From positions 74,655 to 138,654 of the forward strand of contig JACPBX010000003.1 of assembly GCA_016180085.1 (NCBI GenBank): a DNA stretch of 64,000 nt, read 5' to 3'. The notes beneath the pieces were generated by a model. It was not told the DNA's origin and searched no databases. It worked only from the letters and a program-made list of their open reading frames with translations. The translations under genes and the position numbers were made by a program. This document shows, in pieces, positions 1,271-20,140 of this stretch (positions are counted from its first letter, which is position 1; every line of letters begins with the position of its first letter). Source of the DNA: Candidatus Woesearchaeota archaeon. GTDB lineage: Archaea > Nanobdellota > Nanobdellia > Woesearchaeales > UBA10216.

Positions 1271-2380
1271 CTACGGCTTAAAGCTGCGCACCGCAGCTGC
1301 AACAGCCTCAATCTCTTCGTTTGTGAGTTCAGGGAACATTGGGAGCGATAGCACCTCTGCGGCTGCTTTTTCCGCAACAGGGTATCTTTGGCTGTTGTAT
1401 TCTGAGTAGGCCTTTTGCTTGTGTATGGGTATCGGATAGTGTATCAGCGTGTCTATTCCTTTTGCCTTCAAATGCTGCTGGAGCCTGTCCCTCTGTTTGC
1501 TCCTTATTACGTAAAGGTAATATGCGTGTTTTCCGTATTTGGCCTCCATTGGCATTATCACATCAGCCTTGGAAAGTGCGCTGTTGTATTCAGTTGCTAT
1601 TTGCCTTTTTTTCTCCACCCACCTGTCAAGGTGCTTCAGCTTTACGAGCAGGATGGCTGCCTGCAGCTCGTCGAGCCTGCTGTTGAAGCCTTTGGTTATG
1701 TGCTCGTATTTCTTCTTCTCCCCGTAGTTCCTTAACAGGAAAGAGTTCTCGGCAATCTCGCCGTTGTTCGTGACTATAGCCCCGGCGTCTCCATATGCCC
1801 CAAGGTTTTTCGTCGGGTAGAAGCTGTAGCAGGCAACATCGCCAAGAACTTCCCTTTTGCCCTTGTATTCTGCGCCGTGGCTCTGGGCAGCGTCTTCCAC
1901 AACTATTATGTTGCGTTTCTCGGCTATCTCCATTATGGGGCCCATATCTGCGTATTGGCCATACATGTGCACCGGAATAACGGCTTTTGTTTTTGCAGTT
2001 ATTGCTGCCTCTATTTTCTCAGGGTCTATGCAGTAAGTGTCTTCCCTGGCGTCCACAAATACCGGCTTTGCGCCGCAGTAGCTTGCTGCGAGGGCGGTTG
2101 CTATGAATGTGTGCGCAGGCACTATCACCTCATCACCTGGACCTACGCCTGCTGCCCTGAGCGCTATGTGCAGTGCCTCTGTGCCTGAGCCCACGCTTAT
2201 GCACTGTTTCGCTTTGGCATACTTTGCGAAGGCTTTTTCGAATTCCTCAACCTTCTCTCCTAGTATGAACCTGCCTTTTTCCAGCACTTCGCTTATTGCA
2301 GCGTCTATCTCGCGCTTTATGCTGTGGTATTGCCTTTTCAGGTCCAGAAACGGCACAAATACAGACTCATGTTTTCTCAT
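1271..2380 (-). CDS. DegT/DnrJ/EryC1/StrS-family PLP-dependent NDP-sugar aminotransferase (or E1-like dehydratase)
   Basis: 369 aa; family-typical layout (FLDLKRQY..., GxGDEVIVPAHTF..., AKPVFVD..., YSFYPTKNLGAYGDAG); 4-nt overlap with upstream acetyltransferase gene. Confidence 0.85.
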   Translation of the reverse strand: MRKHESVFVPFLDLKRQYHSIKREIDAAISEVLEKGRFILGEKVEEFEKAFAKYAKAKQCISVGSGTEALHIALRAAGVGPGDEVIVPAHTFIATALAASYCGAKPVFVDAREDTYCIDPEKIEAAITAKTKAVIPVHMYGQYADMGPIMEIAEKRNIIVVEDAAQSHGAEYKGKREVLGDVACYSFYPTKNLGAYGDAGAIVTNNGEIAENSFLLRNYGEKKKYEHITKGFNSRLDELQAAILLVKLKHLDRWVEKKRQIATEYNSALSKADVIMPMEAKYGKHAYYLYVIRSKQRDRLQQHLKAKGIDTLIHYPIPIHKQKAYSEYNSQRYPVAEKAAAEVLSLPMFPELTNEEIEAVAAAVRSFKP

Positions 2381-3006
2381 TTGCTTTTGCCGTTTTTGTG
2401 TTTTTCGTACACCGGCTTTCCATATTCGTCTTTTAGGCCGTATATGCTGCAGACAGGCTTTGCCGGGTTTCCGAAGGCTACGGTCTCCTTTGGTATGTCT
2501 TTTGTGACCACGCTTCCGCTGCCAACAAGCGCCCTTTCGCCAATTGTCACGCCAGGCAAAATCGTCACGTTGGCCCCTATTTGCGCCCCTTTTTTTATCC
2601 TGGGTCCGTCCTTTCCGGCAATTTCAGGCGTGCTTAGCCTGCTGCCTGGGTATTTGTCGTTGGTTGTCACTGTGCCTGGCCCTATGAACACGCCATCCTC
2701 TATGGCTGTGCCCTGGGCTATGTAGCAGTTGCAGTGCACCTTTACGTTATCCCCGATTTTGCAGCCATAATCCACAACAGAGTTGTTCCACAGCCTGAAA
2801 TTTTTTCCTATGGCGTTCTCTTCCCTTATTACAGAGTTGTGGCCTATTATCAGCCCATCGCCTATCTTCACGCCCTCATACACGATGCTGCTGCTTAGAA
2901 ATTTTGCGTTCTTCCCTATCCGGGCTGTTTTGTCTTTTACGCTTCTCAGGCTTTTTTCACCTATGGCTGCGTTGCTGCCGATTTTCCATGTAGGGTCAGT
3001 TTTCAT
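2377..3006 (-). CDS. Hexapeptide-repeat (left-handed beta-helix) sugar N-acetyltransferase, PglD/WbpD/NeuD-like
   Basis: 209 aa with repeated [LIV]G-x4 hexapeptides (IGDGLIIGHNSVI, IGDNVKVH, IGANVTILPGVTIG); located between epimerase and aminotransferase genes. Confidence 0.8.
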   Translation of the reverse strand: MKTDPTWKIGSNAAIGEKSLRSVKDKTARIGKNAKFLSSSIVYEGVKIGDGLIIGHNSVIREENAIGKNFRLWNNSVVDYGCKIGDNVKVHCNCYIAQGTAIEDGVFIGPGTVTTNDKYPGSRLSTPEIAGKDGPRIKKGAQIGANVTILPGVTIGERALVGSGSVVTKDIPKETVAFGNPAKPVCSIYGLKDEYGKPVYEKHKNGKSK

Positions 3007-3022: not shown

Positions 3023-4015
3023 CTACCAGTAATGGTGCCTGTTTTGCCTATAAAAAGTGATTGTTGCCTTTATGCCCTGTGCCAGGGCTGTTTTTGGCTT
3101 CCATTGCAGCAGCTTTTTTATTTTAGTGATGTCTGCAACAAAGTTTCCCGGCTCAAGTTGTTTTGTTTCGTTTGGGTATGGGATGAATTTGTAGCTTCCG
3201 CTTCCATTTGCTTTTATCACTTCCTTTGCAAGCTCGGCAAAGCTTGTGCCTTTTCCTGTTGCCACGTTGAGCACTTCGCCAGCCGATTTCCCGTTCTCGG
3301 CTGCTGCCATGGTTGCTATGAAAGCGTCGCAGCAGTCTTCAACGTAAAGGTAATCCCTCAGCGTTTTCCCGTCGCCCATGACTGTTATGGGCATGCCTTC
3401 CATGGCAAGCCTTATGAACCAGTTTACCACGCCGTACGGCTTCCGCATCTGGTGCCTTGGGCCGTATGTGTTCGTTATCCTGAGGCAGCAGGTTTTTATG
3501 CCGTGAAGCCTGTTGTACATGAGCATCATCTGCTCTGCCGCCAGGCTTGTTATGGCGTACATCCCAAGCGGCTTTGTGGGGAATTCCTCTGTTACAGGAA
3601 GCCCTCCAGCAGCCCCGTACTGCGCCCTTGTGCCTGAGTAAATAATCGTTGCTGTGTCGTTGTTTTTCCTGCATTCCTCGAGTAGCGTCAGTGTCCCGTT
3701 GCACCTTATGTCCAGGTCCTCAAAAGGCAGCTCCACGCTCCTGTGGTGGTCCACTTGCCCTGCAAGGTGGAAGATGACGTCCTTCCCTTTAACAGCCTCT
3801 GCAACTATTTTCTTATCCCTGACATCACCGGTTATGACCTTTATTTTATCCTTGACTTTCTGGATGTTGAATTCGTTGCCTCCCAAGCCGGGTATCAGCG
3901 CGTCAATTACTGTTACATCTGCGCCGAGCTTTGCCAGCTGCATTGCCAGGCTGCTTCCTATGAAGCCCAGGCCGCCTGTTATCAGGGCCTTTTTGCCTTT
4001 GAGGCTTTTTTGCAT
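3023..4015 (-). CDS. NAD-dependent epimerase/dehydratase (extended SDR; UDP-sugar 4-epimerase-like)
   Basis: 330 aa; N-terminal Rossmann motif ALITGGLGFIGSSL; YxxxK region; typical length. Confidence 0.8.
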   Translation of the reverse strand: MQKSLKGKKALITGGLGFIGSSLAMQLAKLGADVTVIDALIPGLGGNEFNIQKVKDKIKVITGDVRDKKIVAEAVKGKDVIFHLAGQVDHHRSVELPFEDLDIRCNGTLTLLEECRKNNDTATIIYSGTRAQYGAAGGLPVTEEFPTKPLGMYAITSLAAEQMMLMYNRLHGIKTCCLRITNTYGPRHQMRKPYGVVNWFIRLAMEGMPITVMGDGKTLRDYLYVEDCCDAFIATMAAAENGKSAGEVLNVATGKGTSFAELAKEVIKANGSGSYKFIPYPNETKQLEPGNFVADITKIKKLLQWKPKTALAQGIKATITFYRQNRHHYW

Positions 4016-4018
4016 GCC

Positions 4019-5164
4019 CTATTGCACCCTTGCAGGATTTTTAAACGTTGCCCTGATTGCAGTGTTCAGCTTTTTCCCAAGGCTTTGCCATGTGAAGTCT
4101 GCCAGCATTTTCCTGTAATTCACCTTTTCCATGCCCAACGCAGCTTCAATCTTTGTTGCCATGTCGCCAGCGTCATTCGGCCTGCAAATAAGCTGCTCAT
4201 AGCCCTTCAGCACCTTGCGCATCTCTCCCACGTCTGTGCACACGATTGGCTTGTCAAGCGCCATGTAGTCCATGAGCTTGTATGGCGTGTACATGACCCT
4301 TGTGAATTCGTTGTCTTCATAAGCAACAACCAGCACGTCTGAGGCGTTGAGGTAATATAGCAGCGCTTTGTATGGCACAGAGGCAACTGTGATTATCCTT
4401 CCGCCCGAGGCATCCGCGGCCCTTGAGTATTTGTTTTTCACTTCATTCCCGATGAGCATCAGCATGGCATTTTTGTTTCTCTCCCTGACGGTGTTGAATG
4501 CCTTTATGAGCGTGTCTATTCCTGCGCCCCTTACCCCTCCGCTGTATGTTATTATCTTGTCATTCAGTGGCAGGTCGGTTAGTTTCCTGCATTCTTCCTG
4601 AGGCAGCGGCTTGTACAGCTGCAGGTCTATCCCGTTTGGTATTGTAACTACAGGCCCTCGCCCTTTCCTTGCCTTAAGCGCCGCATGCGCAAGGATATTG
4701 CTCGCGCACGTCACCATGCTGCTTTTCCTCATTACGTGGTTATTTACAAGCCTGCTGGCAAGCTTCTGGATAATGCCTGTTTTCAGCAGCGGGAAATTGC
4801 CGAACTCGTATGTTTCGTAGTTGTCCCTCACGTCATAGACAACCGGCCTTTTTTTCGCTGCAGCAATTGCAACCAGCCCCAAAAGCGGGTGCGAGGTTGC
4901 AACTATAATCTCGTTTTCAGCCGCCATCCTTTTTGCGGCAGCAAGGAAATTTGTTATGCTCGCTATGGCGAAAGGGCATATCTCGACCTTCATTCCGTTG
5001 AGTTTCTTTGTAGCCTTTTCTTTCTTGGCTTGGTCGGCGCACAGGATTGTTACCTGGTGGCCGAGCCTTTGCAGCTCTGACGCCAGCCTGACTTCCCTCC
5101 CGAAGTTCTCCTCTATCTGGTCCTTGCCGGAGGAGAACCTTTTCATCACGACGAGTATTTTCAT
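4019..5164 (-). CDS. Glycosyltransferase, GT-B fold (group 1/GT4-like)
   Basis: 381 aa; C-terminal Glycos_transf_1-like segment (...YKLMDYMALDKPIVCTDVGE...). Confidence 0.65.
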   Translation of the reverse strand: MKILVVMKRFSSGKDQIEENFGREVRLASELQRLGHQVTILCADQAKKEKATKKLNGMKVEICPFAIASITNFLAAAKRMAAENEIIVATSHPLLGLVAIAAAKKRPVVYDVRDNYETYEFGNFPLLKTGIIQKLASRLVNNHVMRKSSMVTCASNILAHAALKARKGRGPVVTIPNGIDLQLYKPLPQEECRKLTDLPLNDKIITYSGGVRGAGIDTLIKAFNTVRERNKNAMLMLIGNEVKNKYSRAADASGGRIITVASVPYKALLYYLNASDVLVVAYEDNEFTRVMYTPYKLMDYMALDKPIVCTDVGEMRKVLKGYEQLICRPNDAGDMATKIEAALGMEKVNYRKMLADFTWQSLGKKLNTAIRATFKNPARVQ

Positions 5165-5228
5165 ATTCTCACATTCTCATGTGGCGGTTGTGTGCCAGAA
5201 TCGTATTTAAAGGTTTGGTAGAACGGGT

Positions 5229-5510
5229 CTAATGGTTCTTTTCTGCCTTCCCTGTTGTTTTGCCGTAATGGTACTTCATAAGTATCAGAGTGATATTTAA
5301 CGCAATGCCTGCTATGTTTGCGGCTATTATGACTATATCTTTCTTGCTGATGCCGTAACTAAGCCAAAGGCTCATTCCCAAAGTAAGCGATGCGTTCATC
5401 AGGTATGATAAGTCCCCGAGGTGTTTTGTTTTGTAGCCCTTTATTATCTGCGGCACAAAGCCGAATGTCGTTAGTATTCCGGCTGCAAACCCGACGATTT
5501 CCCAGTTCAT
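5229..5510 (-). CDS. SemiSWEET-type PQ-loop mini sugar transporter (3 TM)
   Basis: 93 aa; VGFAAGILTTFGFVPQIIKGYKTK...LGMSLWLSYGI closely resembles bacterial SemiSWEETs (e.g. Bradyrhizobium IGFAAATCTTVAYAPQFIKVLKTR...LGLALWLIYGL); ATG at 5510..5508 overlaps the upstream dehydratase stop (ATGA coupling). Confidence 0.7.
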   Translation of the reverse strand: MNWEIVGFAAGILTTFGFVPQIIKGYKTKHLGDLSYLMNASLTLGMSLWLSYGISKKDIVIIAANIAGIALNITLILMKYHYGKTTGKAEKNH

Positions 5511-6493
5511 TCTTCTTCCAGCTTTTTAATAAAATCTCTGTACCACTGCACCGTTTCCTTCAACCCTTCGTCAAGCTTAAACCTTGGTTTCCATCCAAGC
5601 ACTTTTCCGGCCTTTGTCCAGTCAAGGTATTGCTCCTGAAGCTCGTTTTTCGCCTCGTTGAGTATTTGTGGCTCCAGGTTTTTCCCGGCAGCAGCAATAA
5701 TTTTTTTTACCAGTTCCAACACACTAACCGGCTGCTCAGTCCCGAAGTTGAATGCCTCGCCAGCCACTTCTTCCTTGTCAAGCTGCTCTGCAAGCGTAAT
5801 GTAGGCGGCCACAACGTCAAGGACGTAAATGTAATCCCGTATTGGAGTGCCATCGCTGCGGATTATCGGGCTTTCATTGTTCAGCACGGCCTTTATCGTG
5901 CCGGGGATTATCCTGCTCCAGTTCAAATCCCCCCCGCCATAGATGTTGCCGCATCTTGTAACGGCAACCGGCAGGCCGTAAGTCTTTGCGTATGCCCTTG
6001 CAAGCATGTCTGTGCAGCTCTTCGACACTTCGTAAGGGGTTAATCCGTTCAGGCAGAAGTCTTCCATGTACGGCAGCTTTTCATGCTTCCCATATGCCTT
6101 GTCGCTTGACGCAACCACGGTTCTTTTTACGCCGAGCTGCCTGCATGCCTCGAGCACGTTCCATGTTCCTTTTATGTTTGTCTCGAAAGTTTGCAGCGGG
6201 GATTTGTTTGCCACTCCAACTATAGCCTGGGCAGCCAGGTGGAAGCAAACCTCTGCGCCGGTCTCTTTCATCGCCTTCTCAACAGCATTGTAGTCCTCTA
6301 TGGTTCCCTTGACCGTGTTAACCTGGTCAGCTACTCCAATGAACTCAAGGCTTGAGCCCTTGACTGGGTCACGGATTATGCATGTGACGTTTGCTTCCTT
6401 TTTCACGAGGTCGCTGACAAGCCAGCTTCCCACAAAGCCATTCCCGCCTGTTACGAACACGTTCCTGTCTTTCCAGTCAAAAGTCATTTTCAT
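5507..6493 (-). CDS. rfbG: CDP-glucose 4,6-dehydratase (RfbG/DdhB-like)
   Basis: Start moved to internal MKMTFDWKDRNVFVTGGNGFVGSWL (ATG 6493..6491), 7 nt downstream of the rfbF stop; the track's N-terminal extension (MTASGS...RRGRCGNKNK) overlaps rfbF and is low complexity; extended SDR with YxxxK. Confidence 0.75.
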   Translation of the reverse strand: MKMTFDWKDRNVFVTGGNGFVGSWLVSDLVKKEANVTCIIRDPVKGSSLEFIGVADQVNTVKGTIEDYNAVEKAMKETGAEVCFHLAAQAIVGVANKSPLQTFETNIKGTWNVLEACRQLGVKRTVVASSDKAYGKHEKLPYMEDFCLNGLTPYEVSKSCTDMLARAYAKTYGLPVAVTRCGNIYGGGDLNWSRIIPGTIKAVLNNESPIIRSDGTPIRDYIYVLDVVAAYITLAEQLDKEEVAGEAFNFGTEQPVSVLELVKKIIAAAGKNLEPQILNEAKNELQEQYLDWTKAGKVLGWKPRFKLDEGLKETVQWYRDFIKKLEEE

Positions 6494-6500
6494 CTTGTTT

Positions 6501-7265
6501 TTATTTCCACACCTTCCACGGCGCCCCTTTTTCCCACAGCTCGTTGAAGCTCTGGTAATCCTTGAACGTGTCCATGCACTGCCAGAAGCCGTCAAACTGG
6601 TAAGCCGCTATTTCTTTTTTTGCAGCCAGTGTTTCAAACGGCTTCTGCTCGAGGATGTCATTCTCTCCAAGGCAGCTGAAAATCTCTTTCTTGAAAACAA
6701 AAAAACCGCCGTTTATCCAGTAGTCGAGCTTCGGCTTCTCCTTGAAGCTCGTTACCGAGCTGTCGTCAATTTCGACTATGCCGAACTGGGAGTATGGCCT
6801 AAGGCAGGTTATCGTGGCTATTTTTCCTTTCTTCTTATGGAATTCCAGAAGCTCCGGTATGTTTATGTCCGCCAAGCCATCGCCGTATGTTGCGAAGAAG
6901 TCCTCGCCTGCAGGTATGTATTTTTCTATTTTCTTAAGCCTGCCGCCTGTGTTTGTTTCAGTTCCCGTATCTGCGAATGTGATGTTCCAGTCCTCTTCGT
7001 CGCTTGCGTGGGTTACCCTTTTCTTCTCTTTCAGGTTCATTGTAAAGTCTGCTGCCTTCCACTCTTCTTCGATGAAGTATTTTTTTATCATGTCGCCCTT
7101 ATAGCCGAGGCAGAGGATAAAGTCCTTATAGCCGTAATGAGCATAAGTCTTCATTATGTGCCACAGTATCGGCTTGTCACCGATTGGAGCCAGCGGCTTT
7201 GGTATCTCTTCAGGGTATTCCCTGAACCTTGTCCCCTTCCCTCCGCACAATATGACGACTTTCAT
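6501..7265 (-). CDS. rfbF: Glucose-1-phosphate cytidylyltransferase (RfbF/DdhA-like)
   Basis: 254 aa; MKVVILCGGKGTRFREYPEEIPKPLAPIGDKPILWHIMKTYAHYG... is characteristic of RfbF. Confidence 0.85.
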   Translation of the reverse strand: MKVVILCGGKGTRFREYPEEIPKPLAPIGDKPILWHIMKTYAHYGYKDFILCLGYKGDMIKKYFIEEEWKAADFTMNLKEKKRVTHASDEEDWNITFADTGTETNTGGRLKKIEKYIPAGEDFFATYGDGLADINIPELLEFHKKKGKIATITCLRPYSQFGIVEIDDSSVTSFKEKPKLDYWINGGFFVFKKEIFSCLGENDILEQKPFETLAAKKEIAAYQFDGFWQCMDTFKDYQSFNELWEKGAPWKVWK

Positions 7266-7277
7266 CTTTTTGATTTT

Positions 7278-8168
7278 TTATTTCTTAATCATGTCCGCTA
7301 TGAAGCCGAACGTTACAATCTGGACTCCCACGCTCATGAGCAGCACGCTCAGTATCAAGCTCGGTATGTGGCCAACGATGCCTGTTGTGAAGTAGAAGTA
7401 GAGCAGCCTCAGCCCCAGGGCAAAGCCAGCAGCAAAGACCAGCCCTCCAATCATGCCAAAAAACCTTATTGGTTCATAATCGCGGTAGATGCGCAGGATG
7501 TTTATCCACGCCCTTGCAGCGTATTCGAACGGGTTTCGTATGAGCCTGCTTTTCCCTTTTCTCTCTGAAAAATAAACGGGCACCTCAGCAATCCTGAATT
7601 TGTTCTTTACTGCCTTGATTACCTGCTCCTGCGTGTAGGTGTGGTTTGAGATTATGTCTATCTTTTCGGCAACTTCCCTGGTGAATGCCCTGAACCCTGT
7701 CTGGGCGTCTGATATCCTTGCCTTGGCTATCTGGGAAACCACTTTTGAGAACGCCTTGTTCCCGAGCTTTTTTATGAGCGGCATCTTTTCTATTGTGCCC
7801 TTGAACCTTGAGCCAAGCACGAAGTCGTTCCCTTCCTCGATTTTCTTCAGAAGCAATGGTATTTCCTCTGCCTTGTACTGGCCGTCAGCGTCAATGTGCA
7901 CAATGGCTTCTGCCTCGGGCTTTAGCTTCAGGAACTGCTGTATCTCTGTCCTGAATGTTTCAGCAAGGCCGTAGTTTTTCGGGTGGGAGTAAACAACAGC
8001 GCCCTCGCCTTTTGCAGCCTCGGCTGTTTTGTCTGTTGAGCCATCGTCCACAACCAGCACCCTGTAGACGTAGCTGCGGTGCTTTCCTAGGACTTCCTTT
8101 ATGTTCCTTATTACATGGGCTATTGTTGCCTCTTCATTGTATGCTGGTATGCTGACAACTACGTTCAT
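7278..8168 (-). CDS. GT2 polyprenyl-phosphate sugar synthase-like glycosyltransferase with C-terminal TM helices (Dpm1/GtrB/ArnC-like)
   Basis: Start moved to MNVVVSIPAYNEE (ATG 8168..8166, verified); VVDDGSTD, DADGQ motifs; C-terminal membrane span; G5 run upstream. Confidence 0.75.
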   Translation of the reverse strand: MNVVVSIPAYNEEATIAHVIRNIKEVLGKHRSYVYRVLVVDDGSTDKTAEAAKGEGAVVYSHPKNYGLAETFRTEIQQFLKLKPEAEAIVHIDADGQYKAEEIPLLLKKIEEGNDFVLGSRFKGTIEKMPLIKKLGNKAFSKVVSQIAKARISDAQTGFRAFTREVAEKIDIISNHTYTQEQVIKAVKNKFRIAEVPVYFSERKGKSRLIRNPFEYAARAWINILRIYRDYEPIRFFGMIGGLVFAAGFALGLRLLYFYFTTGIVGHIPSLILSVLLMSVGVQIVTFGFIADMIKK

Positions 8169-8285
8169 TTGTTTTTTCCCCCTGCTTCCCCCTCGGTTTC
8201 CACTCCCGGCGGTCTTGATTTTGGCTTTAAATATGTTTCCATCCCTCAAAACTTTTTTATATGGGCTTTTTCCGTGTCTGCAATC

Positions 8286-11678: not shown

Positions 11679-12800
11679 ATGCTTTTGCTATTCACTATGG
11701 CAAACATGAAAAAACTCTTTATTCCCGGGCCGGTTCAGGTGGACAGGCGGGTTCTCGAGGAAATGGCCCGCCCTATGATGCATCACCGTTCTGCTGAATG
11801 CGTTGCTCTAATCAGGGAAATAAACGGGCTGCTGTCAGAGCTCCTTGGGACAAAGGACAGCATATTTCTCCTCACAAGCTCTGCTACCGGCGCCATGGAG
11901 GCCTGCATAAGGAGCTGCGTCATAAGCAGGGTGCTGTGCATTGCCAACGGCGAGTTCGGAAGGCGATGGCATTCTGTGGCAGTTTCAAACGGTAAGGATG
12001 CCAGGCTGCTGGACTTTGGCGATGGCGCGCTGGTTGACTACGGCGCTGTGGCTGATGAGCTGAGGAAAGGCGATTTTGATGCTGTGACCTTCATAATTAA
12101 TGAGACGTCAACAGGCATGGAGAACGACTCAAAGGCGCTGAAAGCAGCTGTCCAGGCTGCTTCAGGGGATGCCGCAAAGGACATTATAATATTGGCAGAT
12201 GGAGTTTCTGCTGTCTTTGGGACAAAGGTTGACATGGCTGACTATGATGCGCTGCTTTTTGCAACGCAGAAATCCCTTGCGCTGCCTCCGGGCATGTCCA
12301 TAATAATTGCGAACAGCCGGGCAATTGGCCGTGCCAAGCTGGTCAAGGGCAGGGGCTACTACTTCGACTTCCTTCTCCTCAAGAAGAGGAGCGATGAGAA
12401 CATGACAACAACAACGCCTGCCCTGCCGATTCTTTATGCCCTGAGGTACAGGCTGCAGGAGATTGGGAAGCAGGGGATTGGCAGCTACATTAACAGGCAT
12501 AAAGCCATGGCCGAGCTTGTCCGCAGCAGAATCAGGGGCATGGGCTTCAGGCTTTTCGTGCCAAGCAGCTACTCAAATACTGTTACTGTCATTTCAAATA
12601 ACCTTGGCGTTGATACTGAAGGGCTGATAAGGCTTCTTTCTGAAAAGGGCTATGTCATTGAAAACGGCTACGGCCCATTGAAGAACAAGACTTTCAGGAT
12701 AAGCCACATGGGCGATATAACCCCTGCTGATACAGGGGAGCTGCTTGCCGAGATGGAGAAAATCGTGAAATCGCAGCTGTCAGCCAGCAGCTTGCCGTGA
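11679..12800 (+). CDS. Class V aminotransferase (AGXT/SGAT/archaeal-SerC family)
   Basis: 373 aa; N-terminal LFIPGPVQV...MMHHRSAEC signature of the class V/AGXT family; true start probably MANMKK/MKK (11700/11706); 4-nt overlap with the downstream kinase gene. Confidence 0.8.
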   Translation: MLLLFTMANMKKLFIPGPVQVDRRVLEEMARPMMHHRSAECVALIREINGLLSELLGTKDSIFLLTSSATGAMEACIRSCVISRVLCIANGEFGRRWHSVAVSNGKDARLLDFGDGALVDYGAVADELRKGDFDAVTFIINETSTGMENDSKALKAAVQAASGDAAKDIIILADGVSAVFGTKVDMADYDALLFATQKSLALPPGMSIIIANSRAIGRAKLVKGRGYYFDFLLLKKRSDENMTTTTPALPILYALRYRLQEIGKQGIGSYINRHKAMAELVRSRIRGMGFRLFVPSSYSNTVTVISNNLGVDTEGLIRLLSEKGYVIENGYGPLKNKTFRISHMGDITPADTGELLAEMEKIVKSQLSASSLP

Positions 12801-13888
12801 ACGGGAATGATGGAAAAGTGGGAAAGGCCAGGGTTTTTGCACCGGCAACAACAGCCAATGTCGGCCCGGGCTTTGACATCTTTGGCGTTGCACTTGATGG
12901 CGTAGGCGATATTGTCGAAGCTGACTTGTCTGATTCTTTCAGTGGTGTAAGGCTGGCGGAGGTTGCTGTCGGTTCAGACAGCGAAAGCTTAAAGGACCTT
13001 CCAATGGATGAGGCAAATCTCGTTTTTCCCGTTGCAAAGGCAGTGTATGATGCGGCTTGCAAAGCTGGCCGCAAAGACACCGGCGTTGAGGTAAGGCTGA
13101 TTAAGAGGATGGGAATAGGCACAGGGCTCGGCAGCAGCGGCTCAAGCTCTGTTGCTGCTGCCGTTGCAGTTAATGAGGCTTTGGGCGGGGTTTTTGCCCG
13201 TGACAGCCCCGAGATGCTTGCTGCTGTCCTGGAAGGCGAATTTGTTGCCTGCGGCTCCAGGCACGCTGATAATGTTTTCCCTGGCCTTCTTGGCGGCTTT
13301 GTCTTCATCGAGGACCCAGCCTCATTCAGGTTCAGGAAGTTTGACGTTGGCAGAGACGTGTTTTTTGTAGTTGTTACGCCTGAAATTGTCGTCAGCACAA
13401 AGGAAGCAAGGGATGCATTAAGGGCTTCGCCATACAACATCGGTGAGCTTGTAAGCCTTTCCAGCTCAGTGGTTAGGCAATACCTTGACTCGGGCAGCCG
13501 CAGCTCAGGCAGTATTCCTGCTTCAGTTGTTGGCACTGGCTCGGCTGATGTTGTTTCAGCTTACCTGGAGGGAACGGTTGAGGTTCTAACAGGCCTGATT
13601 GGCAATGATGCTGAGCTGCTTGGCAGGGGCACGCTGAAAGATGGCATTGTTACCCCAATAAGGGCAGGGCTTATTCCGGGCTATTACGATGTCAAGAAGG
13701 CCGCCCTTGAGGCTGGCGCAAAGGGGTTTTCAATTTCTGGCTCAGGCCCTTCTGTTTTTGCAGTGGCTTATGAGGAAGATGCTGAGGCTGTAAAGAAAGC
13801 CATGATTGGCAGGTTTGAGGGCCTGGGCAAAAGGGCGAGCGGCATCATCTCAGCCGTAAACAACAAAGGCGCCTGCCCGGTTGAGTGA
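12797..13888 (+). CDS. GHMP-family kinase, homoserine-kinase (ThrB)-like
   Basis: 363 aa; N-terminal APATTANVGPGFDIFGVAL (ThrB-type motif 1) and GIGTGLGSSGSSSVAAAVA (GHMP ATP-binding motif 2). Confidence 0.75.
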   Translation: MNGNDGKVGKARVFAPATTANVGPGFDIFGVALDGVGDIVEADLSDSFSGVRLAEVAVGSDSESLKDLPMDEANLVFPVAKAVYDAACKAGRKDTGVEVRLIKRMGIGTGLGSSGSSSVAAAVAVNEALGGVFARDSPEMLAAVLEGEFVACGSRHADNVFPGLLGGFVFIEDPASFRFRKFDVGRDVFFVVVTPEIVVSTKEARDALRASPYNIGELVSLSSSVVRQYLDSGSRSSGSIPASVVGTGSADVVSAYLEGTVEVLTGLIGNDAELLGRGTLKDGIVTPIRAGLIPGYYDVKKAALEAGAKGFSISGSGPSVFAVAYEEDAEAVKKAMIGRFEGLGKRASGIISAVNNKGACPVE

Positions 13889-13936: not shown

Positions 13937-15184
13937 TTGTTGGAAGTGGAATGCATGATTGATGTTGGCAGGTTCAGGAACATACAATATGGGAAAAGGA
14001 CAAGGTGCATGGCTTGCGGGGCAGCTGTTGGCAAGCCGCTGATAAGCCTGCCTGATTTTCCTTTGAGCGAGATTTACACGGACCGCCCTGTTAAGGAGAA
14101 AGCAGGATTTGTTGACCAGGAGTTCTGCCTTTGCAAAAGCTGCGGCCATGGCCAGCTGCTTAACATAATCCCGCCGGAGCTCCTTTACTTTGGCAGCAGC
14201 TACTTTTTCAGGACTTCGCAGAGCAGGACTGCTGTGCCAGCTGTTGACTTCTTTCTCGACTTTGTCGAGGGCGTTCTTAAAAGCAGGGCTTACGATACCA
14301 TTGCTGACATTGGCTGCAACGACTTGTACATGCTGAAGAAGCTTGACGCTAAGGCAAAAAGGCTTTTGGGGATTGACCCTGTCCTCGCAGGAAGGGAGAA
14401 GGAGCTTTCTGAGGGGAAGACCGTTGTCATTGGGGACTTGTTTGAGAATGCTGTTGCCAATCACAACGTATCTTTCGATAAGGACCTTGTGCTTAGCAGC
14501 CACACCCTGGAGCACGTGAAGGACCCTAAGTGGCTTGTCAAGACTGTGCTTGACAGTTCAACAGATAACACGCTGTTCGGTTTCCAGTTCCCGGGTTTCG
14601 AGAGCCTGGTGAGGGATGCAAGGTTTGATCAGGTGTTCCACCAGCACTATAACTATTTCACTTTGAAGTCAGTCGTCCGCATGCTTACGGACCTGGGCGC
14701 AGAGCTTGTTGCTTACAAGGTGAACCCTTACCACTGGGGTGCGCTGATGATAGTGTTCAGGAAAAACCCCTCAGGCTCAACAGCCTGGCACAAGAGGTTT
14801 GAGCATGATGCTGTGCAGCTCACTGATGAGGCAGTCCTCTCGCAGTACCGGGTTTTTCAGGATGCCATGAAGCTGGCAGGTGAGCGCCTTTCAGCGTGGA
14901 AGGGCAGCACGGTTTACGGCTACGGCGCAGCAAACATGCTTCCCGTCCTGAGCTACCACATGAAGAACGACCTTTCCTGCCTTCAGGCTGTATTGGATGA
15001 TGATGAGCGCAAGCAGGGCATGCACTACATCAACCTTCCTGTTGCCATAAAGTCCCCTTCTGTTGTTAAGGACTTCAAGGATGTTGTGCTGTTCCTTACA
15101 GCCATTGACAATTCCAGGATACTTGTGCCAAAGCTTATCTCGCTCGCACCAAAGAAAATTATCCTTCCCCTTAACATTGTGTAG
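13937..15184 (+). CDS. NDP-hexose C-methyltransferase (TylCIII family; Zn-ribbon + Methyltransf_13/14)
   Basis: 415 aa; N-terminal CMAC...CKSCGHGQL Zn-ribbon, SAM motif DIGCNDLYML, C-terminal C-methyltransferase domain. Confidence 0.75.
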   Translation: MLEVECMIDVGRFRNIQYGKRTRCMACGAAVGKPLISLPDFPLSEIYTDRPVKEKAGFVDQEFCLCKSCGHGQLLNIIPPELLYFGSSYFFRTSQSRTAVPAVDFFLDFVEGVLKSRAYDTIADIGCNDLYMLKKLDAKAKRLLGIDPVLAGREKELSEGKTVVIGDLFENAVANHNVSFDKDLVLSSHTLEHVKDPKWLVKTVLDSSTDNTLFGFQFPGFESLVRDARFDQVFHQHYNYFTLKSVVRMLTDLGAELVAYKVNPYHWGALMIVFRKNPSGSTAWHKRFEHDAVQLTDEAVLSQYRVFQDAMKLAGERLSAWKGSTVYGYGAANMLPVLSYHMKNDLSCLQAVLDDDERKQGMHYINLPVAIKSPSVVKDFKDVVLFLTAIDNSRILVPKLISLAPKKIILPLNIV

Positions 15185-15322
15185 CCATTATGCAGCGCTA
15201 TGTGATTCTCCTCCATAAAATTTCGGGCTATGACGGTAAGAGGGGGTAAAATTTATATACTCTCACGGATTCGGGACAGCTTCCGGAAAACAGCTGCGTG
15301 TTTGCAGCAGTCTTGAAGGGGG

Positions 15323-16117
15323 TTGTTTTTTATGGATTTTGGTCTGACTGGCAAGAAAGCCTTGGTTACTGCAGCGAGCCGCGGCATTGGCGCGTCCATT
15401 GCAATAAACCTGGCAAAGGAAGGCGCGCTGGTTGCTATTACAGCGAGGAGCGAGCCTGACCTTAAGGAAGTCATTGCAAAGATGGGCGGCGAAGGTAAAG
15501 GCCATTACATGGTTGTTGCTGACCTGACTGCCGAGGACGGCCCGAAGAAAGTTTTTGACAAGGTTCTGAAGGATTTTGGCTCCCCTGACATTCTTGTCAA
15601 CAACCTTGGCGATACGCTTGAGCTCCGAGACCCTTTTATCCCAATCAGTGACTGGAGAAAAATCATAAGGCTCAACCTTGAGGTCGCCATTGAGCTGAAC
15701 AATCTTGTTATTCCGCATATGGAGCAGAGGAAATGGGGCAGGATAGTTAATGTTTTGTCAACAGCATCTTACGAGAACAACGGGCCTGTCCCTTACTGCA
15801 CTGCCAAGGCTGCCTTCTCGGCTTATACGAGAAGCATGGCCAGGGTTTTGGCAAAGACAGGCATTGTTATGTCCGGCATTGTGCCTGGCGCTATTTTCAC
15901 AGAGGGCGGTGCCTGGGACATTGCCATGAAGACAAGGCCTGAGCACATCCGCAAATACCTGGAGGAAAGGCTCCCCCTGGGCAGGTTTGGCGAGCCTGAT
16001 GACATAGGTACCATGGCTGTTGTGCTGTGCTCAGAGCAGGCAAAGTTCTGCCAGGGCTCCATTTTCCCTGTTGATGGCGGCCAGAGCAGGCACTATTTTC
16101 GGGCTGCCACTGATTAA
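15323..16117 (+). CDS. Short-chain dehydrogenase/reductase (FabG-like ketoreductase)
   Basis: 264 aa; ALVTAASRGIGASIA (TGxxxGIG), NNLG, YCTAKAA (YxxxK). Confidence 0.85.
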   Translation: MFFMDFGLTGKKALVTAASRGIGASIAINLAKEGALVAITARSEPDLKEVIAKMGGEGKGHYMVVADLTAEDGPKKVFDKVLKDFGSPDILVNNLGDTLELRDPFIPISDWRKIIRLNLEVAIELNNLVIPHMEQRKWGRIVNVLSTASYENNGPVPYCTAKAAFSAYTRSMARVLAKTGIVMSGIVPGAIFTEGGAWDIAMKTRPEHIRKYLEERLPLGRFGEPDDIGTMAVVLCSEQAKFCQGSIFPVDGGQSRHYFRAATD

Positions 16118-16118
16118 A

Positions 16119-17918
16119 ATGAAGCTGTCTGACTATGTTGTGGAGTTTTTGGTTGAGCAGGGCATAAGGCACGTTTTTCTAGTTTCAGGAGGGGCGGTTG
16201 CGCACCTTGTTGATTCAGCAGCAAGAAACCCCAGAATGACTTACGTGTGCCCTGAGCATGAGCAGAACGCAGGCTCTGCTGCTGATGCCTATGCGAGGAT
16301 AACGGGGAAGATGGGTGCCGTGTTCACGACGAGCGGGCCTGGCGCCACCAACCTTGTGACGAGCGTTTGCAACTCATATTTTGACTCAATCCCTGTTATT
16401 TTCATCACAGGCCAGGTTGCGACATTCCGCATAAGGCCCAGCGAGAGGCTTCGCCAGAAGGGCTTTCAGGAAACCGATGTTATTTCCATATTTAAGTCAA
16501 TCACCAAATACTCGATACAGCTCAGGAAAGCAGAGGACATCAAGTTCGTCCTTCAGGAAGCTGTCCATGCAGCCACGTCAGGGAGGATGGGTCCTGTCCT
16601 TGTTGATATTCCTGATGATTTGCAAAGGGTCGAGATTGACCCTGAAAAGCTTCGGGATTTTAAGCCTTTGGCTGCCCAGGCAGGTGCAGTAAACCCGGCA
16701 AATGACCTGTCAGCTGTTAAGGATGTCTTTGCAGCCATAAGGTCTGCGAAAAGGCCTGTGCTTATCCTCGGCGCGGGCATCAGGCTTTCAGGCACAGTTC
16801 CTGAAGCCCTGAAGTTTGCCGAGCATTTCCGCATTCCGTTCCTTTTGACGTGGGGCGCTATGGACATGGTTGAGCACGGCTATGAGCTTAACATGGGCGG
16901 TGTTGGCGTTTGCGGCCCAAGAGGAGGTAATTTTGCAGCCCAGACGTCAGACCTTGTTGTTGCGCTTGGCACAAGGCTTTCCCAGATGATTACAGGCGGC
17001 AAGCAAAACCTTTTCGCTCCCTATGCGAAAAAAATCATGGTTGACGTTGATGCTGAGGAGCTTAACAAGTTCTCGCCAAGCGATGTTGTCCTTGACGTGA
17101 AAATCAGCTGTGGCCTCAGGGATTTTTTTGCAGAATGCGAAAGGCTTTACAGCGGCACCGGCCCTGCCGAAAAGGGCAGGCTGAAGGAGTGGAGGCAGCA
17201 AATCAATGAGTGGAGAATGAAATACCCAATCTGTCCCGGGTCAAACTACGGCAGGAAGGAAAGGGTTGATGCATACGTTTTTATCAGGGAGCTGTCAAAG
17301 GCAGCCAAGGAAGGTGATGTCATTTTCACCGATGCAGGCGGCAACCTGAGCCAGACCATGCAGGCCTTCGAAGTGAAAAAAGGCCAGCGCCTCATCTCAG
17401 CCTGGAACCACTCGCCCATGGGCTATGCGCTTCCTGCAGCCATTGGCGCTGCGTTTGCAATCGGCCAAGGCAGCGGCAAGGACATCCTGTGCATCATCGG
17501 CGATGGCGGCATTATGATGTGCCTTGAGGAGCTTGCGGTTATTGCCAAGCACAACCTTCCAATAAAAATTTTCGTTTTTAACAACCATGGCCATGCAATC
17601 CAGAAGCAGACCATCGATACCTGGCTTAACTCGCATTACGTGGCTGTTGACGAGTCTTCCGGCCTTGCTTTCGCTGATTTTGACAAAATCGGCCCGGCCT
17701 TCGGGCTTCCGGCTGTTGCCATAAGAAACCACGAAGAGCTTAAGGCAAAGCTTGGCAAGGTCCTTGGCGCCAAGGGCCCTGTGCTGTGCAATGTTGAGAT
17801 TGCTGTAGACCAGAGGATTGTTCCGATGCTCAGGTTTGGCGCAGGCATTGAGGACCTGGACCCAAAACTGCCTAAGGAAGAGGTTGAGGCAATCATGGCT
17901 GTTGGCAGGAAAAGGTAA
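16119..17918 (+). CDS. Thiamine-pyrophosphate-dependent enzyme of the acetolactate-synthase/benzoylformate-decarboxylase family (YerE-like candidate)
   Basis: Start moved to MKLSDYVVEFLVEQGIRHVF (ATG 16119, 1 nt after the SDR stop); N-terminal Pyr domain, central domain, C-terminal PP domain with GDGG...N TPP-binding motif (IIGDGGIMMCLEEL...FNN). Confidence 0.8.
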   Translation: MKLSDYVVEFLVEQGIRHVFLVSGGAVAHLVDSAARNPRMTYVCPEHEQNAGSAADAYARITGKMGAVFTTSGPGATNLVTSVCNSYFDSIPVIFITGQVATFRIRPSERLRQKGFQETDVISIFKSITKYSIQLRKAEDIKFVLQEAVHAATSGRMGPVLVDIPDDLQRVEIDPEKLRDFKPLAAQAGAVNPANDLSAVKDVFAAIRSAKRPVLILGAGIRLSGTVPEALKFAEHFRIPFLLTWGAMDMVEHGYELNMGGVGVCGPRGGNFAAQTSDLVVALGTRLSQMITGGKQNLFAPYAKKIMVDVDAEELNKFSPSDVVLDVKISCGLRDFFAECERLYSGTGPAEKGRLKEWRQQINEWRMKYPICPGSNYGRKERVDAYVFIRELSKAAKEGDVIFTDAGGNLSQTMQAFEVKKGQRLISAWNHSPMGYALPAAIGAAFAIGQGSGKDILCIIGDGGIMMCLEELAVIAKHNLPIKIFVFNNHGHAIQKQTIDTWLNSHYVAVDESSGLAFADFDKIGPAFGLPAVAIRNHEELKAKLGKVLGAKGPVLCNVEIAVDQRIVPMLRFGAGIEDLDPKLPKEEVEAIMAVGRKR

Positions 17919-17923
17919 GAAAA

Positions 17924-18967
17924 ATGGGAAATGAAGACGTTATTTCAGCAGTGAAATCAAAGTATCCGCTTTCCAGGCTCAAGGAGATGCTTGAGGGCCT
18001 TGGAAGTGTTAAGGCGATGGTGGTGGGCGATACCATAATTGACGAGTATCACTTCACAATCCCGAAGGGCAGGGCCACGAAGGACCCTATTTTGTCCGTT
18101 GACTACATCAACCACGAGGTTTATGCCGGCGGCATTTTGGCAATTGCCAACCATGTCAGCAACTTTGTTGGCAGCGTTACGTGCGTAACGCTTCTGGGTA
18201 ATAAGGACGACAGGAAGGGCTTTGTTGAAGGCTCGCTTAACAGGAACGTTACCCTGAAATCCTTTATGAAGGAGAACTCACCTACAACTGTTAAAAAGCG
18301 CTATCTGAACTATCTTCGCAACGAAAAGCTGTTTAAGGTTGAGTACATTAACGACAGGCCCATATCTGAAAAGCTTGAGGCTGAACTGATAGCTTTCCTT
18401 AATGTTGAGCTGCCCAGGCACGACCTTGTCCTGGTCGGTGACTTTGGCCACGGCATGATAACCCCGGCAATTATTGAGGTATTGGAGAAAAAGGCGAAAT
18501 ACCTTTGTGTCAATGCGCAGAGCAACAGCTCAAACCTGGGCTTCAACTTTGTGACAAGGTATCATTTGCCCGCTTTTGTGACAATGGACGTCCAGGAGCT
18601 CCAGTACGCTGTTGGCGACAGGTTCAGCCCCATGCCTGTCCTTATTCAGAAGCTGCACGAAAAGGCAGGCTTTAACAAGTTCCTCGTGACTATGGGCAAG
18701 GATGGCGCTGGCTTCTTCAGCAGCGGCAGGCTTTCTTTTTTCCCTGCCTTTGTGACAAGGCCTCAGGACACTGTCGGGGCTGGCGACGCTGTCTTTTCCA
18801 TCGCATCCCTTTTCTCCTACAGCAGCCATGATGAGCTGATTCCCTTCATTGCCAACTGCGTGGGAGGGATTGCTGTTTCGTACATGGGCAACAAGGAGTT
18901 CATAACCAGGAACGCGCTTGTCAGCTTTGTTGAAGAAGTGTATAATGGCAATACGAAGGTGCGGTGA
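17924..18967 (+). CDS. hldE: PfkB-family sugar kinase, HldE/RfaE domain-I-like (heptose 7-phosphate 1-kinase candidate)
   Basis: 347 aa; N-terminal AMVVGDTIIDEY, C-terminal DTVGAGDAV (PfkB motifs); co-occurs with gmhA and an adenylyltransferase-GmhB fusion. Confidence 0.7.
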   Translation: MGNEDVISAVKSKYPLSRLKEMLEGLGSVKAMVVGDTIIDEYHFTIPKGRATKDPILSVDYINHEVYAGGILAIANHVSNFVGSVTCVTLLGNKDDRKGFVEGSLNRNVTLKSFMKENSPTTVKKRYLNYLRNEKLFKVEYINDRPISEKLEAELIAFLNVELPRHDLVLVGDFGHGMITPAIIEVLEKKAKYLCVNAQSNSSNLGFNFVTRYHLPAFVTMDVQELQYAVGDRFSPMPVLIQKLHEKAGFNKFLVTMGKDGAGFFSSGRLSFFPAFVTRPQDTVGAGDAVFSIASLFSYSSHDELIPFIANCVGGIAVSYMGNKEFITRNALVSFVEEVYNGNTKVR

Positions 18968-18991: not shown

Positions 18992-20140
18992 TCATCTTTC
19001 CATTACCTTGTCAAACTCGTTCTTCAGCTCTTCATAGCTTTTGTCTGTGACGTCGATGAATGCAGCATTGGCGTTCCGTGCCATGCCGGCGTCGTCTTCG
19101 CTGTTGCCGATAACGGCTGCCTTGTCAAACTCCTTTATGTTCTTGCCCAGCTGCTGTAAGGCCTGCAGCAGCATCTCGGGGCTCGGCTTCCTTTTTGTTT
19201 TCTTTTTTACAAAATCCGGGTTGAAATTAGCTTCTTTCTGTAAGGCGGCATAGTCCGCATCAGCGTCTGGGCAGTATTGCCAGTTGTTTATTATAACACC
19301 TTTTCTTCTCAATAATTCATGAATGTGCTTGTTTACAGCTTCAACTTTTTCCGCATCAAAATAGCCCCTGGCAACTCCCTGCTGATTTGAAATAACGACC
19401 CTGACAGTGTCGTACTTTGTCTGTATGTAGATGAGCAAGTCAACAACTTCTTTCTTTAGCTTTATCTGATCTCTCCAGTTAGAGTCTTTGCCCAGAAAAT
19501 TAACCTTCTCCACCAATGTGCCGTCCCTGTCAATCACCAGCAGCACTTTTTCGCTCTTTGCATTTTCCTGTATGTGCCTGATGATGGCCGTTGTTGACAT
19601 TTTCTGGTCTGTGGTATACTTTATTTCGCCGCCAACAGCCTTTATCGCTTCTCTCTCGGAAGTGATTCCTGGTGTTGTCTTTTCAGCAAAATCGGGCCCT
19701 TTTATGTAATAGGCAGGTTTTAGCATTTTAATCAGGTCGGTTGCTTTCTCAAAGTCGCTGACAATCACGTAGTCAACATACCGGATGCTTGCAACTGAAT
19801 AAGCCCTTAATGCCTCTGAGAAGATTGGCCTGCCGCTGCCTTTCCTGGCTGCCACAAACCTGTCTGCGGTTACTGCAACAAAAAGGCAGTCGCAAAGCTT
19901 TTTTGCTGATTCCAGGTGCTTTATGTGACCTGGATGAAGAAGGTCAAAGCCGCCGTTGCAAAGCCCGGCTTTCCTTCCCTGCTTCCTCAGCTCCTCGCTT
20001 TTTTCCACAGCCTCGGCAAGGCTTATGACCTTGTCGGACCTGTAGTTTTTGGGTGAGTCTTCCTTTATCATCTGCAATGCAGCCCTATTTGCCGCCTCCG
20101 CCTCCTGCAAGCTTTTTAACCTTCCTGATAATTGCTTCAA
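18992..20140 (-). CDS. Bifunctional cytidylyl/adenylyltransferase (HldE domain-II-like) fused to D,D-heptose-1,7-bisphosphate phosphatase (GmhB-like HAD)
   Basis: N-terminal CNGGFDLLHPGHIKHLESAKKL...LFVAV (HIGH-type nucleotidyltransferase, like HldE-II/TagD); C-terminal LLVIDRDGTL...ISNQQGVARGYF...YCP...RKPSPEML...GNSEDDAGMARNA matches GmhB; start may be the internal ATG at 20071, which would remove the 56-nt overlap with the next gene. Confidence 0.7.
   Translation of the reverse strand: MKQLSGRLKSLQEAEAANRAALQMIKEDSPKNYRSDKVISLAEAVEKSEELRKQGRKAGLCNGGFDLLHPGHIKHLESAKKLCDCLFVAVTADRFVAARKGSGRPIFSEALRAYSVASIRYVDYVIVSDFEKATDLIKMLKPAYYIKGPDFAEKTTPGITSEREAIKAVGGEIKYTTDQKMSTTAIIRHIQENAKSEKVLLVIDRDGTLVEKVNFLGKDSNWRDQIKLKKEVVDLLIYIQTKYDTVRVVISNQQGVARGYFDAEKVEAVNKHIHELLRRKGVIINNWQYCPDADADYAALQKEANFNPDFVKKKTKRKPSPEMLLQALQQLGKNIKEFDKAAVIGNSEDDAGMARNANAAFIDVTDKSYEELKNEFDKVMER

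Follow-up and report, generated by a model that had tools for sequence, protein, structure and literature searches.

A SemiSWEET gene translationally coupled to CDP-sugar genes in a conserved surface-glycan operon of Woesearchaeota-like DPANN archaea

The SemiSWEET gene and its operon

Here, we analysed a 64,000-nt stretch of contig JACPBX010000003.1 from a Candidatus Woesearchaeota archaeon (GenBank assembly GCA_016180085.1, positions 74,655 to 138,654), hereafter the window, in which a minus-strand open reading frame (ORF) at 5229..5510 encodes a 93-amino-acid (aa) protein, MNWEIVGFAAGILTTFGFVPQIIKGYKTKHLGDLSYLMNASLTLGMSLWLSYGISKKDIVIIAANIAGIALNITLILMKYHYGKTTGKAEKNH. It belongs to the SemiSWEETs, the smallest known transporters, and its gene lies among sugar-modifying genes on the same strand. 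The features of this locus, in the order of transcription, are listed below (TM, transmembrane; SDR, short-chain dehydrogenase/reductase; GT2 and GT4, glycosyltransferase families 2 and 4; NDP, nucleoside diphosphate).

7278..8171, minus strand: AglJ/DPMS/ArnC-like GT2 with two C-terminal TM helices (Glycos_transf_2), first gene of the block
6501..7265, minus strand: glucose-1-phosphate cytidylyltransferase, RfbF-like (TIGR02623, 299.9 bits against a cut-off of 300.25; NTP_transferase)
5507..6493, minus strand: CDP-glucose 4,6-dehydratase-like SDR, 328 aa from the ATG at 6493 (Epimerase and GDP_Man_Dehyd domains)
5507..5510, minus strand: ATGA overlap of the SDR stop and the SemiSWEET start (GAA GAA TGA / ATG AAC TGG)
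5229..5510, minus strand: SemiSWEET coding sequence, 93 aa, three TM helices, PQ motif P20-Q21, pocket T14/W49/N65 (ORF, profile matches, AlphaFold2 model, hydropathy)
5204..5211, minus strand: TTTAAATA, a TATA-box-like word in the 64-nt spacer, about 40 nt 5′ of the GT4 ATG (word count)
4019..5164, minus strand: GT4 glycosyltransferase, following the SemiSWEET gene after a 64-nt spacer
3023..4015, minus strand: second SDR, NDP-sugar epimerase/reductase-like (profile matches)
2377..3006, minus strand: hexapeptide-repeat sugar N-acetyltransferase-like protein (NeuD/PglB/VioB family, 101 bits, below cut-off)
1271..2380, minus strand: DegT/DnrJ/EryC1 sugar aminotransferase (425.9 bits)

The initial annotation, made from the sequence alone, had called the protein a 93-aa SemiSWEET of the PQ-loop type and had proposed that it be searched against PF04193 and PF03083. 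Both families are matched above their gathering thresholds (MtN3_slv PF03083, 41.3 bits against 23.7, E 1.6e-10; PQ-loop PF04193, 31.8 bits against 22), as is the cut-off of the NCBIfam model SemiSWEET_2 (NF037968, 82.6 bits against 80, E 1.6e-23). All Pfam matches above threshold fall within the MtN3/PQ-loop clan, and a LAB_N match of 17 bits lies below threshold. Against the sequences of the PDB, phmmer retrieves TySemiSWEET (4RNG, E 3.6e-14), LbSemiSWEET (4QNC, 1.5e-12), BjSemiSWEET (9KAX, 2.7e-12) and EcSemiSWEET (4X5M, 1.2e-9). The expected three-TM topology holds as well, with hydrophobic peaks at residues 5-19, 34-54 and 59-78 and three helices in an AlphaFold2 monomer model built on 28 homologs (mean pLDDT 89.2), which Foldseek superposes best on 4RNG (target TM-score 0.94, root-mean-square deviation 1.1 Å) and 4QNC (0.90, 1.1 Å), the eukaryotic SWEETs, cystinosin and the mitochondrial pyruvate carrier ranking far lower. 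This protein thus qualifies as a SemiSWEET on all of the family's sequence and structure criteria that are open to in silico testing. Since an NCBI entry with the identical sequence is already named "SemiSWEET transporter [Candidatus Woesearchaeota archaeon]", the family assignment itself is not new.

The solved SemiSWEETs (4RNG, 4QNC, 9KAX) share with the window protein a length of about 90 aa, a triple-helix bundle, a PQ motif in TM1, a Trp/Asn/Thr pocket and an Asp-Ser-Met/Phe intracellular gate, at 33-38% identity and TM-scores of up to 0.94. In LbSemiSWEET, the pocket and gate comprise T13, F17, P19-Q20, D32, S34, M37, W48, Y51 and N64 (PMC5972207), and all of these are kept in the window protein, as T14, F18, P20-Q21, D33, S35, M38, W49, Y52 and N65, respectively; Pro59 of LbSemiSWEET is replaced by Val. 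Here, F18, D33, S35 and M38 make up the intracellular gate and P20-Q21 is the PQ motif of TM1. In an alignment of 28 homologs, encoded both in and outside the operon, the pocket residues W49 and N65 never vary and T14 is retained in at least 90%, the full invariant set being G7, A10, P20, Q21, T28, D33, S35, G45, W49, Y52, G53 and N65. Because the pocket and gate residues are invariant or nearly so whether or not the homolog sits in the operon, there is no sign of a changed pocket. Pairwise dN/dS of 0.10-0.22 against nine orthologs, with dS near or at saturation, shows the gene to be under purifying selection. A K/R-rich loop 1 and C-terminal tail indicate an N-out/C-in orientation, and, by analogy with the family, the protein would form a parallel homodimer with a single translocation path. 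The window protein departs from the solved bacterial SemiSWEETs in its origin and setting, being archaeal (DPANN) and coupled within a biosynthetic glycan operon, neither free-standing nor placed beside catabolic genes.

The junction between the SDR and SemiSWEET genes reads ...GAAGAATGAACTGG on the coding strand, which confirms the ATGA overlap with an upstream dehydratase-like gene described in the initial annotation; the minus-strand operon of glycosyltransferase, aminotransferase and cytidylyltransferase genes that it described is likewise borne out, the GT2, cytidylyltransferase, SDR, GT4, second SDR, acetyltransferase and DegT genes all being on this strand. Upstream of the overlap, the gaps between the GT2, cytidylyltransferase and SDR genes are 12 and 7 nt. 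Only the name rfbG (CDP-glucose 4,6-dehydratase) had been slightly overstated: the RfbG model TIGR02622 is indeed the best-scoring one for the SDR, whose gene adjoins that of the cytidylyltransferase, but its 231.3 bits fall short of the equivalog cut-off of 278.45, and we therefore use the label RfbG-like. Judging from its orthologs, this SDR most likely starts at the ATG at 6493 and not at the TTG at 6595 given in the ORF list. The GT2 scores best with AglJ (TIGR04182, 159.7 bits) and the haloarchaeal dolichyl-phosphate hexose transferase (NF041391, 125.9 bits), followed by PpgS (114.4 bits) and ArnC (72.3 bits), all below the respective equivalog cut-offs; its profile suggests a polyprenyl(dolichyl)-phosphate glycosyltransferase-like enzyme with a presumed lipid acceptor, and its orthologs begin at MNVVVSIPAYNEE. 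From general knowledge of these enzyme families, the operon is predicted to make an N-acetylated CDP-linked 4-amino-4,6-dideoxyhexose for a dolichol-linked surface glycan. Two plus-strand ORFs lie antisense to these genes, at 5390-6043 (217 aa) opposite SemiSWEET and SDR and at 6300-7568 (422 aa) opposite cytidylyltransferase and GT2; they are shadow ORFs, not genes.

The host being archaeal, promoter signals were assessed by counting TATA-like words, not by sigma-70 motifs. In the window, TTTAAATA is found 12 times where 1.8 copies would be expected, a count reached in 0 of 100 shuffles. Several copies precede a predicted gene start by 25-45 nt, a distance in line with archaeal TATA boxes (other sites include 1172-1179 and, also on the minus strand, 43614-43621 and 49148-49155, as well as 23072-23079 on the plus strand). 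The copy in the spacer between SemiSWEET and GT4 resembles an archaeal TATA box and is a possible internal promoter; with such a box ahead of GT4, the SemiSWEET gene may end a transcription unit of its own, composed of GT2, RfbF, RfbG-like SDR and SemiSWEET.

Gene order in related loci

The genomic contexts examined comprised those of homologs from protein searches, 79 loci taken from one genome per species and searched for with the 13 closest sequences, 80 metagenome loci, and loci anchored on the GT4 gene; neighbouring genes were classed by phmmer with the window proteins as queries (E ≤ 1e-5), and the resulting synteny sample held about 125 distinct archaeal SemiSWEET sequences. The order SDR-SemiSWEET-GT4 surrounds every homolog with at least 60% identity to the window protein except one, in 14 loci spanning 60-87% identity; the exception (L102, 60%) adjoins a RIO-kinase-like gene outside the block. 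The syntenic block loci are the window, L001/L016, L002, L003/L022, L017-L021, L023, L095, L100, L101, L103 and L104. The survey of related genomes for SemiSWEET-rfbFG synteny that the initial annotation had suggested thus gave a positive result.

In its full form, the block runs from a dolichyl-phosphate (Dol-P) hexosyltransferase-like GT2 through the glucose-1-phosphate cytidylyltransferase, the SDR and SemiSWEET to the GT4. Enough upstream sequence is available for 10 loci, and 9 of them have the AglJ-like GT2 and the cytidylyltransferase there; the exception, L001, has a PIN-domain gene ahead of its SDR. Directly downstream of SemiSWEET, all 14 block loci have GT4. The 4-nt ATGA overlap recurs in L002, L017, L019 and L095 and is hence kept in at least five loci, and the SDR-to-SemiSWEET gap measures 10 nt in L001 and 22 nt in L023. 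The spacer between SemiSWEET and GT4 varies more widely, from 10-12 nt in L003 and L023 through 64 nt in the window to 218-228 nt in L001 and L002. In L003/L022, a 624-aa PMT/PMT_2 gene of the GT-C type is inserted divergently between SDR and SemiSWEET, which here heads a sub-operon with GT4 (10-nt spacer), and in L021 the SemiSWEET-GT4 pair is kept though the cytidylyltransferase and dehydratase genes have been replaced. The replacing ORFs between GT2 and SemiSWEET (L021:6195-7773) encode a 412-aa ATPase-like protein and a 90-aa protein, the family of which also occurs upstream of the SDR in L002 (2679-2951). Within one clade of Woesearchaeota-like DPANN archaea, the SemiSWEET gene has thus become a fixed part of a surface-glycan operon, to which it is coupled in translation.

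Downstream of GT4, the loci differ. In 9 of the 14 (L017-L020, L023, L095, L101, L103 and L104), GT4 is directly followed by a PF03706 (LPG_synthase_TM) 'flippase-like' gene for a 6-TM protein of roughly 310 aa, which in L095 (8098-9009) overlaps GT4; often, the next genes are a second GT4 in convergent orientation and one for a GT-C-like protein with 9 TM helices. The window-type loci (window, L001, L002, L003 and L021) lack the PF03706 gene, in place of which they have SDR, ATP-grasp, HAD, acetyltransferase and DegT genes. GT-C genes adjoin SemiSWEET in L003/L022 and lie within 6.5 kb of it in L095, and L018 carries nearby a 9-TM protein of 595 aa that is probably a GT-C enzyme; in most block loci, no GT-C gene was found within 7-8 kb, and the nearest PMT_2 gene of the window is about 20 kb from SemiSWEET.

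Below 60% identity, the link to glycan genes is lost, apart from a few loci with other gene orders. In L012/L106, an SDR, a 112-aa ORF and SemiSWEET form part of a cluster with GT2, hexapeptide transferase, PIG-L, WbqC and DegT genes; in L026, DegT, oxidoreductase, acetyltransferase, GT2, SemiSWEET and HAD genes are followed by one for a 914-aa 10-TM protein, with UbiA and PF03706 genes upstream; and in L061, SemiSWEET stands between acetyltransferase and HAD genes, with NTP-transferase, DegT and Wzx genes further on. No glycan-type neighbours were detected for the homologs from Nitrosopelagicus/Nitrosotenuis, Thermoplasmata and Methanomassiliicoccales (below 60% identity).

The loop motif 'KTKHL' was considered as a marker of the operon clade and rejected, as it is also present in Nitrosotenuis homologs that lack the block. 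A GT4-anchored search for genes replacing SemiSWEET was uninformative, since the GT4 homologs retrieved are at most 40% identical, probably not orthologous, and sit in other clusters (with Wzx or a 727-739-aa membrane protein). Contigs L018, L019, L027 and L094, which carry SemiSWEET homologs, are labelled 'uncultured Methanosarcinales archaeon' (binchicken co-assembly bins); the homologs of L018 and L019 sit in the Woesearchaeota-type block at 60-64% identity, and L027 and L094 carry the homolog only. This label may reflect mis-binning or lateral transfer.

The surrounding glycosylation island

Most of the window, in particular positions 20000-58000, is taken up by a large glycosylation island, the transcription units of which the TTTAAATA sites would allow to be mapped. 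Its membrane proteins include the following.

25403-26950, 31795-33693 and 42262-43599: three PMT_2 GT-C enzymes
23103-25406: DUF6541 protein, 13 TM helices
46317-48371: DUF2079 membrane protein, overlapping a 254-aa ORF at 48358-49122
39076-40578: Wzx-like flippase
52549-52992: GtrA protein
34029-34412: half-size EamA/ArnE-F-like protein

The N-terminus of the 254-aa ORF resembles the GT2 enzymes of the window, and two proteins with 7-9 TM helices (53829-55640 and 56299-58044) gave no Pfam match. A class-V-like aminotransferase lies among glycan genes beside a GHMP kinase that scores above the cut-off of the homoserine-kinase model NF002288 (246 against 194 bits; 11679-13888). An acetolactate-synthase-family thiamine-diphosphate enzyme (16074-17918; 379 bits, below cut-off) also stands among the sugar genes and adjoins a 409-aa protein without an NCBIfam match and a short-chain SDR, a gene set (13955-18967) that may recall the synthesis of branched-chain sugars of the YerE type. 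Next to each other lie a gene for an RfaE-domain-I-like sugar kinase (17924-18967, plus strand) and one in which an RfaE-domain-II-like nucleotidyltransferase is fused to a GmhB/histidinol-phosphatase-like HAD (18992-20071, minus strand); the pair suggests that the island includes a pathway to a heptose or a related NDP-sugar. At the far end, G+C content drops to 0.43-0.46 at 58001-62000, compared with about 0.50 elsewhere in the window; this stretch, which contains an 801-aa ORF (58095-60500) with a glycosyltransferase-looking N-terminus, may be a laterally acquired segment.

Candidate roles of the coupled SemiSWEET

For the role of the protein, the initial annotation had put forward either dedicated sugar import into this pathway or the translocation of a small lipid-linked or modified sugar, and the observations below bear on both without deciding between them. 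The reading towards which we lean, tentatively and somewhat short of an even chance, is that the protein works as a canonical hexose uniporter, in homodimeric form, and is expressed together with the CDP-sugar pathway that it supplies. As in other members of the family, the three-helix bundles would pair as a parallel homodimer that moves sugar down its gradient by alternating access, and the free hexose taken up (glucose or a related sugar) would feed the CDP-sugar pathway of the operon; the pairing, the identity of the sugar, the direction in which it moves and the supply of the pathway are inferences. In favour of this proposal, the pocket is the same as in the assayed free-sugar SemiSWEETs and in homologs outside glycan clusters, and enzymes consuming glucose-1-phosphate are common to the published SemiSWEET contexts and this one. 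SemiSWEETs of DPANN archaea have been listed among sugar-uptake systems, and the genomes of these archaea are reported to be small, with a mean of about 1 Mb in one survey (PMC10936187), so that the host likely scavenges sugars from its surroundings. Several observations weigh against it. Glucokinase, phosphoglucomutase and anomeric sugar kinase were not detected in the block loci listed or searched, and, in the absence of a salvage enzyme among them, free glucose could not reach the CDP-glucose route by the operon genes alone. The sole candidate nearby in the window is a beta-phosphoglucomutase-family HAD that scores below cut-off and lies 5 kb away, outside the operon; the same search also met the RfaE-like heptose kinase/adenylyltransferase and a ThrB-like kinase, both likewise outside the operon. 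Importers are unusual within biosynthetic glycan operons, and all other genes of the block act on nucleotide-linked or lipid-linked sugars. In addition, close homologs are found in Nitrosopumilaceae, which are autotrophs, and sugar import for growth is therefore not obvious there. Finally, only three SemiSWEETs have been assayed (Bj, Lb and Ec), one of which moves its test sugar 'unusually slowly' (PMC5972207), and with so few assayed members the physiological substrates of the family are poorly known.

A different cargo, which we regard as a doubtful but serious possibility, is a lipid-linked sugar: the SemiSWEET dimer would bind the sugar head of a dolichyl-phosphate monosaccharide made by the GT2 and aid its crossing to an outward-facing GT-C enzyme, in a role like that of GtrA or ArnE/ArnF and as a half-size counterpart of MPDU1. 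An AglJ/Dol-P-hexose synthase/ArnC-like GT2 with C-terminal TM helices does head the block in 9 of 10 loci, GT-C genes adjoin or lie near SemiSWEET in L003/L022 and L095, with the 9-TM protein of 595 aa nearby in L018, the GT2-SemiSWEET-HAD order of L026 leads to a 914-aa 10-TM protein, the window has three PMT_2 GT-C genes of its own, and no salvage kinase was detected in the operon loci examined. The DegT aminotransferase, N-acyltransferase and SDR parallel the Arn pathway, and the gene set mirrors the three-component systems for polyprenyl-phosphate-sugar glycosylation. GtrA/ArnE/ArnF systems have in common with these loci a small multi-pass protein accompanied by a GtrB/ArnC-like GT2, an aminotransferase, an acyltransferase and, in some loci, a PMT_2/ArnT-like GT-C enzyme, but SemiSWEET is unrelated in sequence or fold to GtrA (PF04138, 4 TM) and ArnE/F (EamA/DMT-like). 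By analogy, eukaryotic PQ-loop relatives linked to (glyco)lipid handling also speak for such a role: CLPTM1L scrambles GlcN-PI in vitro (PMC9169118), MPDU1 is required for the use of Dol-P-Man and Dol-P-Glc by a mechanism that is unknown (PMC9169118, PMC3281891), and Any1 has been reported as a scramblase (PMC11893163). These proteins belong to the same Pfam clan as the window protein, which matches PQ-loop PF04193 above threshold; however, they are eukaryotic, have 7-8 TM helices (seven in MPDU1-type proteins) in two repeats and show very low sequence similarity to it, whereas the window protein is a single 93-aa repeat that keeps the free-sugar SWEET pocket. That the protein shares its pocket and gate with the assayed free-sugar SemiSWEETs, and with homologs lying outside any glycan context, counts against a lipid-linked cargo, as do the tightest neighbours, which are the soluble SDR and GT4 and not GT2 or GT-C, and the absence of any GT-C gene within 7-8 kb in most block loci. 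Other candidates for the flipping step are at hand, namely the PF03706 'flippase-like' protein right after GT4 in 9 of the 14 block loci and, in the window, GtrA, the ArnE/F-like half-EamA protein and Wzx. Furthermore, the literature searched held no proposal of lipid-linked sugar flipping by a SemiSWEET, and of the 10,375 family representatives the 150 best included no enzyme fusion. In its most specific form, with the operon SemiSWEET acting as a Dol-P-monosaccharide scramblase that uses the Trp/Asn pocket for the sugar head and is the single-repeat prokaryotic counterpart of MPDU1, we consider the idea unlikely. A literature search for a possible precedent of an MtN3-clan flippase (LgmD/LAB_N/PF07578) led only to unrelated papers, and this idea is not used as evidence.

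Two further explanations concern the position of the gene. SemiSWEET might be an ordinary housekeeping sugar uniporter, inserted once into an ancestral glycan operon and retained in one clade, in keeping with the confinement of the block to a single clade of sequences at least 60% identical, with the lack of glycan neighbours around some 110 archaeal homologs of lower identity (Thaumarchaeota, Thermoplasmata, Methanomassiliicoccales), and with L102, whose 60% homolog adjoins the RIO-kinase-like gene. Such a neutral location is improbable, considering that SDR-SemiSWEET-GT4 has outlasted synonymous saturation, the PMT insertion in L003 and the replacement of upstream genes in L001 and L021, that at least five loci retain the 4-nt start/stop overlap, and that independent links to glycan clusters with other gene orders exist (L012/L106, L026, L061 and a published case from Omnitrophica). 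Alternatively, SemiSWEET could serve GT4, either by anchoring or recruiting it (or the SDR) at the membrane or by exporting a soluble glycoside that GT4 makes. Such a partnership is supported by the constancy of GT4 as the next gene throughout the 14 block loci, whatever genes lie upstream, and by the spacer of only 10-12 nt in L003 and L023. However, the 218-228-nt spacers of L001/L002 and the TATA-like box in the window spacer imply that the two are not always co-translated, GT4 homologs at or below 40% identity (probably not orthologous) do without a SemiSWEET neighbour, and the sugar-tailoring genes suggest a surface glycan over a soluble product. Fusions of SemiSWEET to a glycosyltransferase or another enzyme, which also bear on this point, were absent from the 150 best of the 10,375 family representatives, where only tandem duplicates of 188-248 aa were seen. 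We hold a role as GT4 partner to be highly improbable. The tandem duplicates (P0075-P0080, P0089, P0103 and P0144; 188-248 aa, with two SemiSWEET-like stretches each) look like prokaryotic SWEET-like fusions.

The association of SemiSWEETs with sugar-synthesis genes is known anecdotally (PMC5972207). In their survey of 1,922 prokaryotic SemiSWEETs, Jia et al. (2018) noted that some are 'curiously' located beside such genes: the Omnitrophica WOR_2 SemiSWEET A0A0S8IN18 adjoins RmlA/RmlB, and others stand beside GlgC, polysaccharide or glycogen synthesis genes (PMC5972207). The Omnitrophica case and the window have in common a SemiSWEET, a glucose-1-phosphate nucleotidyltransferase and an NDP-glucose 4,6-dehydratase, and the consumption of glucose-1-phosphate is a theme shared by the published contexts and the present one. 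Those cases are, however, single bacterial examples with dTDP or ADP sugars and no conservation analysis, whereas the operon described here is archaeal and CDP-linked, is headed by a Dol-P glycosyltransferase-like GT2, recurs in 14 loci and has the start/stop overlap. As far as we found, the conservation of SemiSWEET in a DPANN clade, its coupling and its link to a Dol-P glycosyltransferase-like GT2 have not been described.

The conserved and coupled place of this gene in an archaeal Dol-P/CDP-sugar operon provides a defined setting for asking what a SemiSWEET moves. If its cargo is a Dol-P-linked sugar, this would be the first lipid-linked substrate for a SemiSWEET and would bear on which proteins flip lipid-linked sugars in archaea, and the protein would offer a simple model for archaeal Dol-P flipping and for the mechanism of MPDU1, a human congenital-glycosylation-disorder gene. 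If, as in the reading that we favour, hexose import is true, the operon would show genome-reduced DPANN archaea linking sugar scavenging to the building of their surface glycans.

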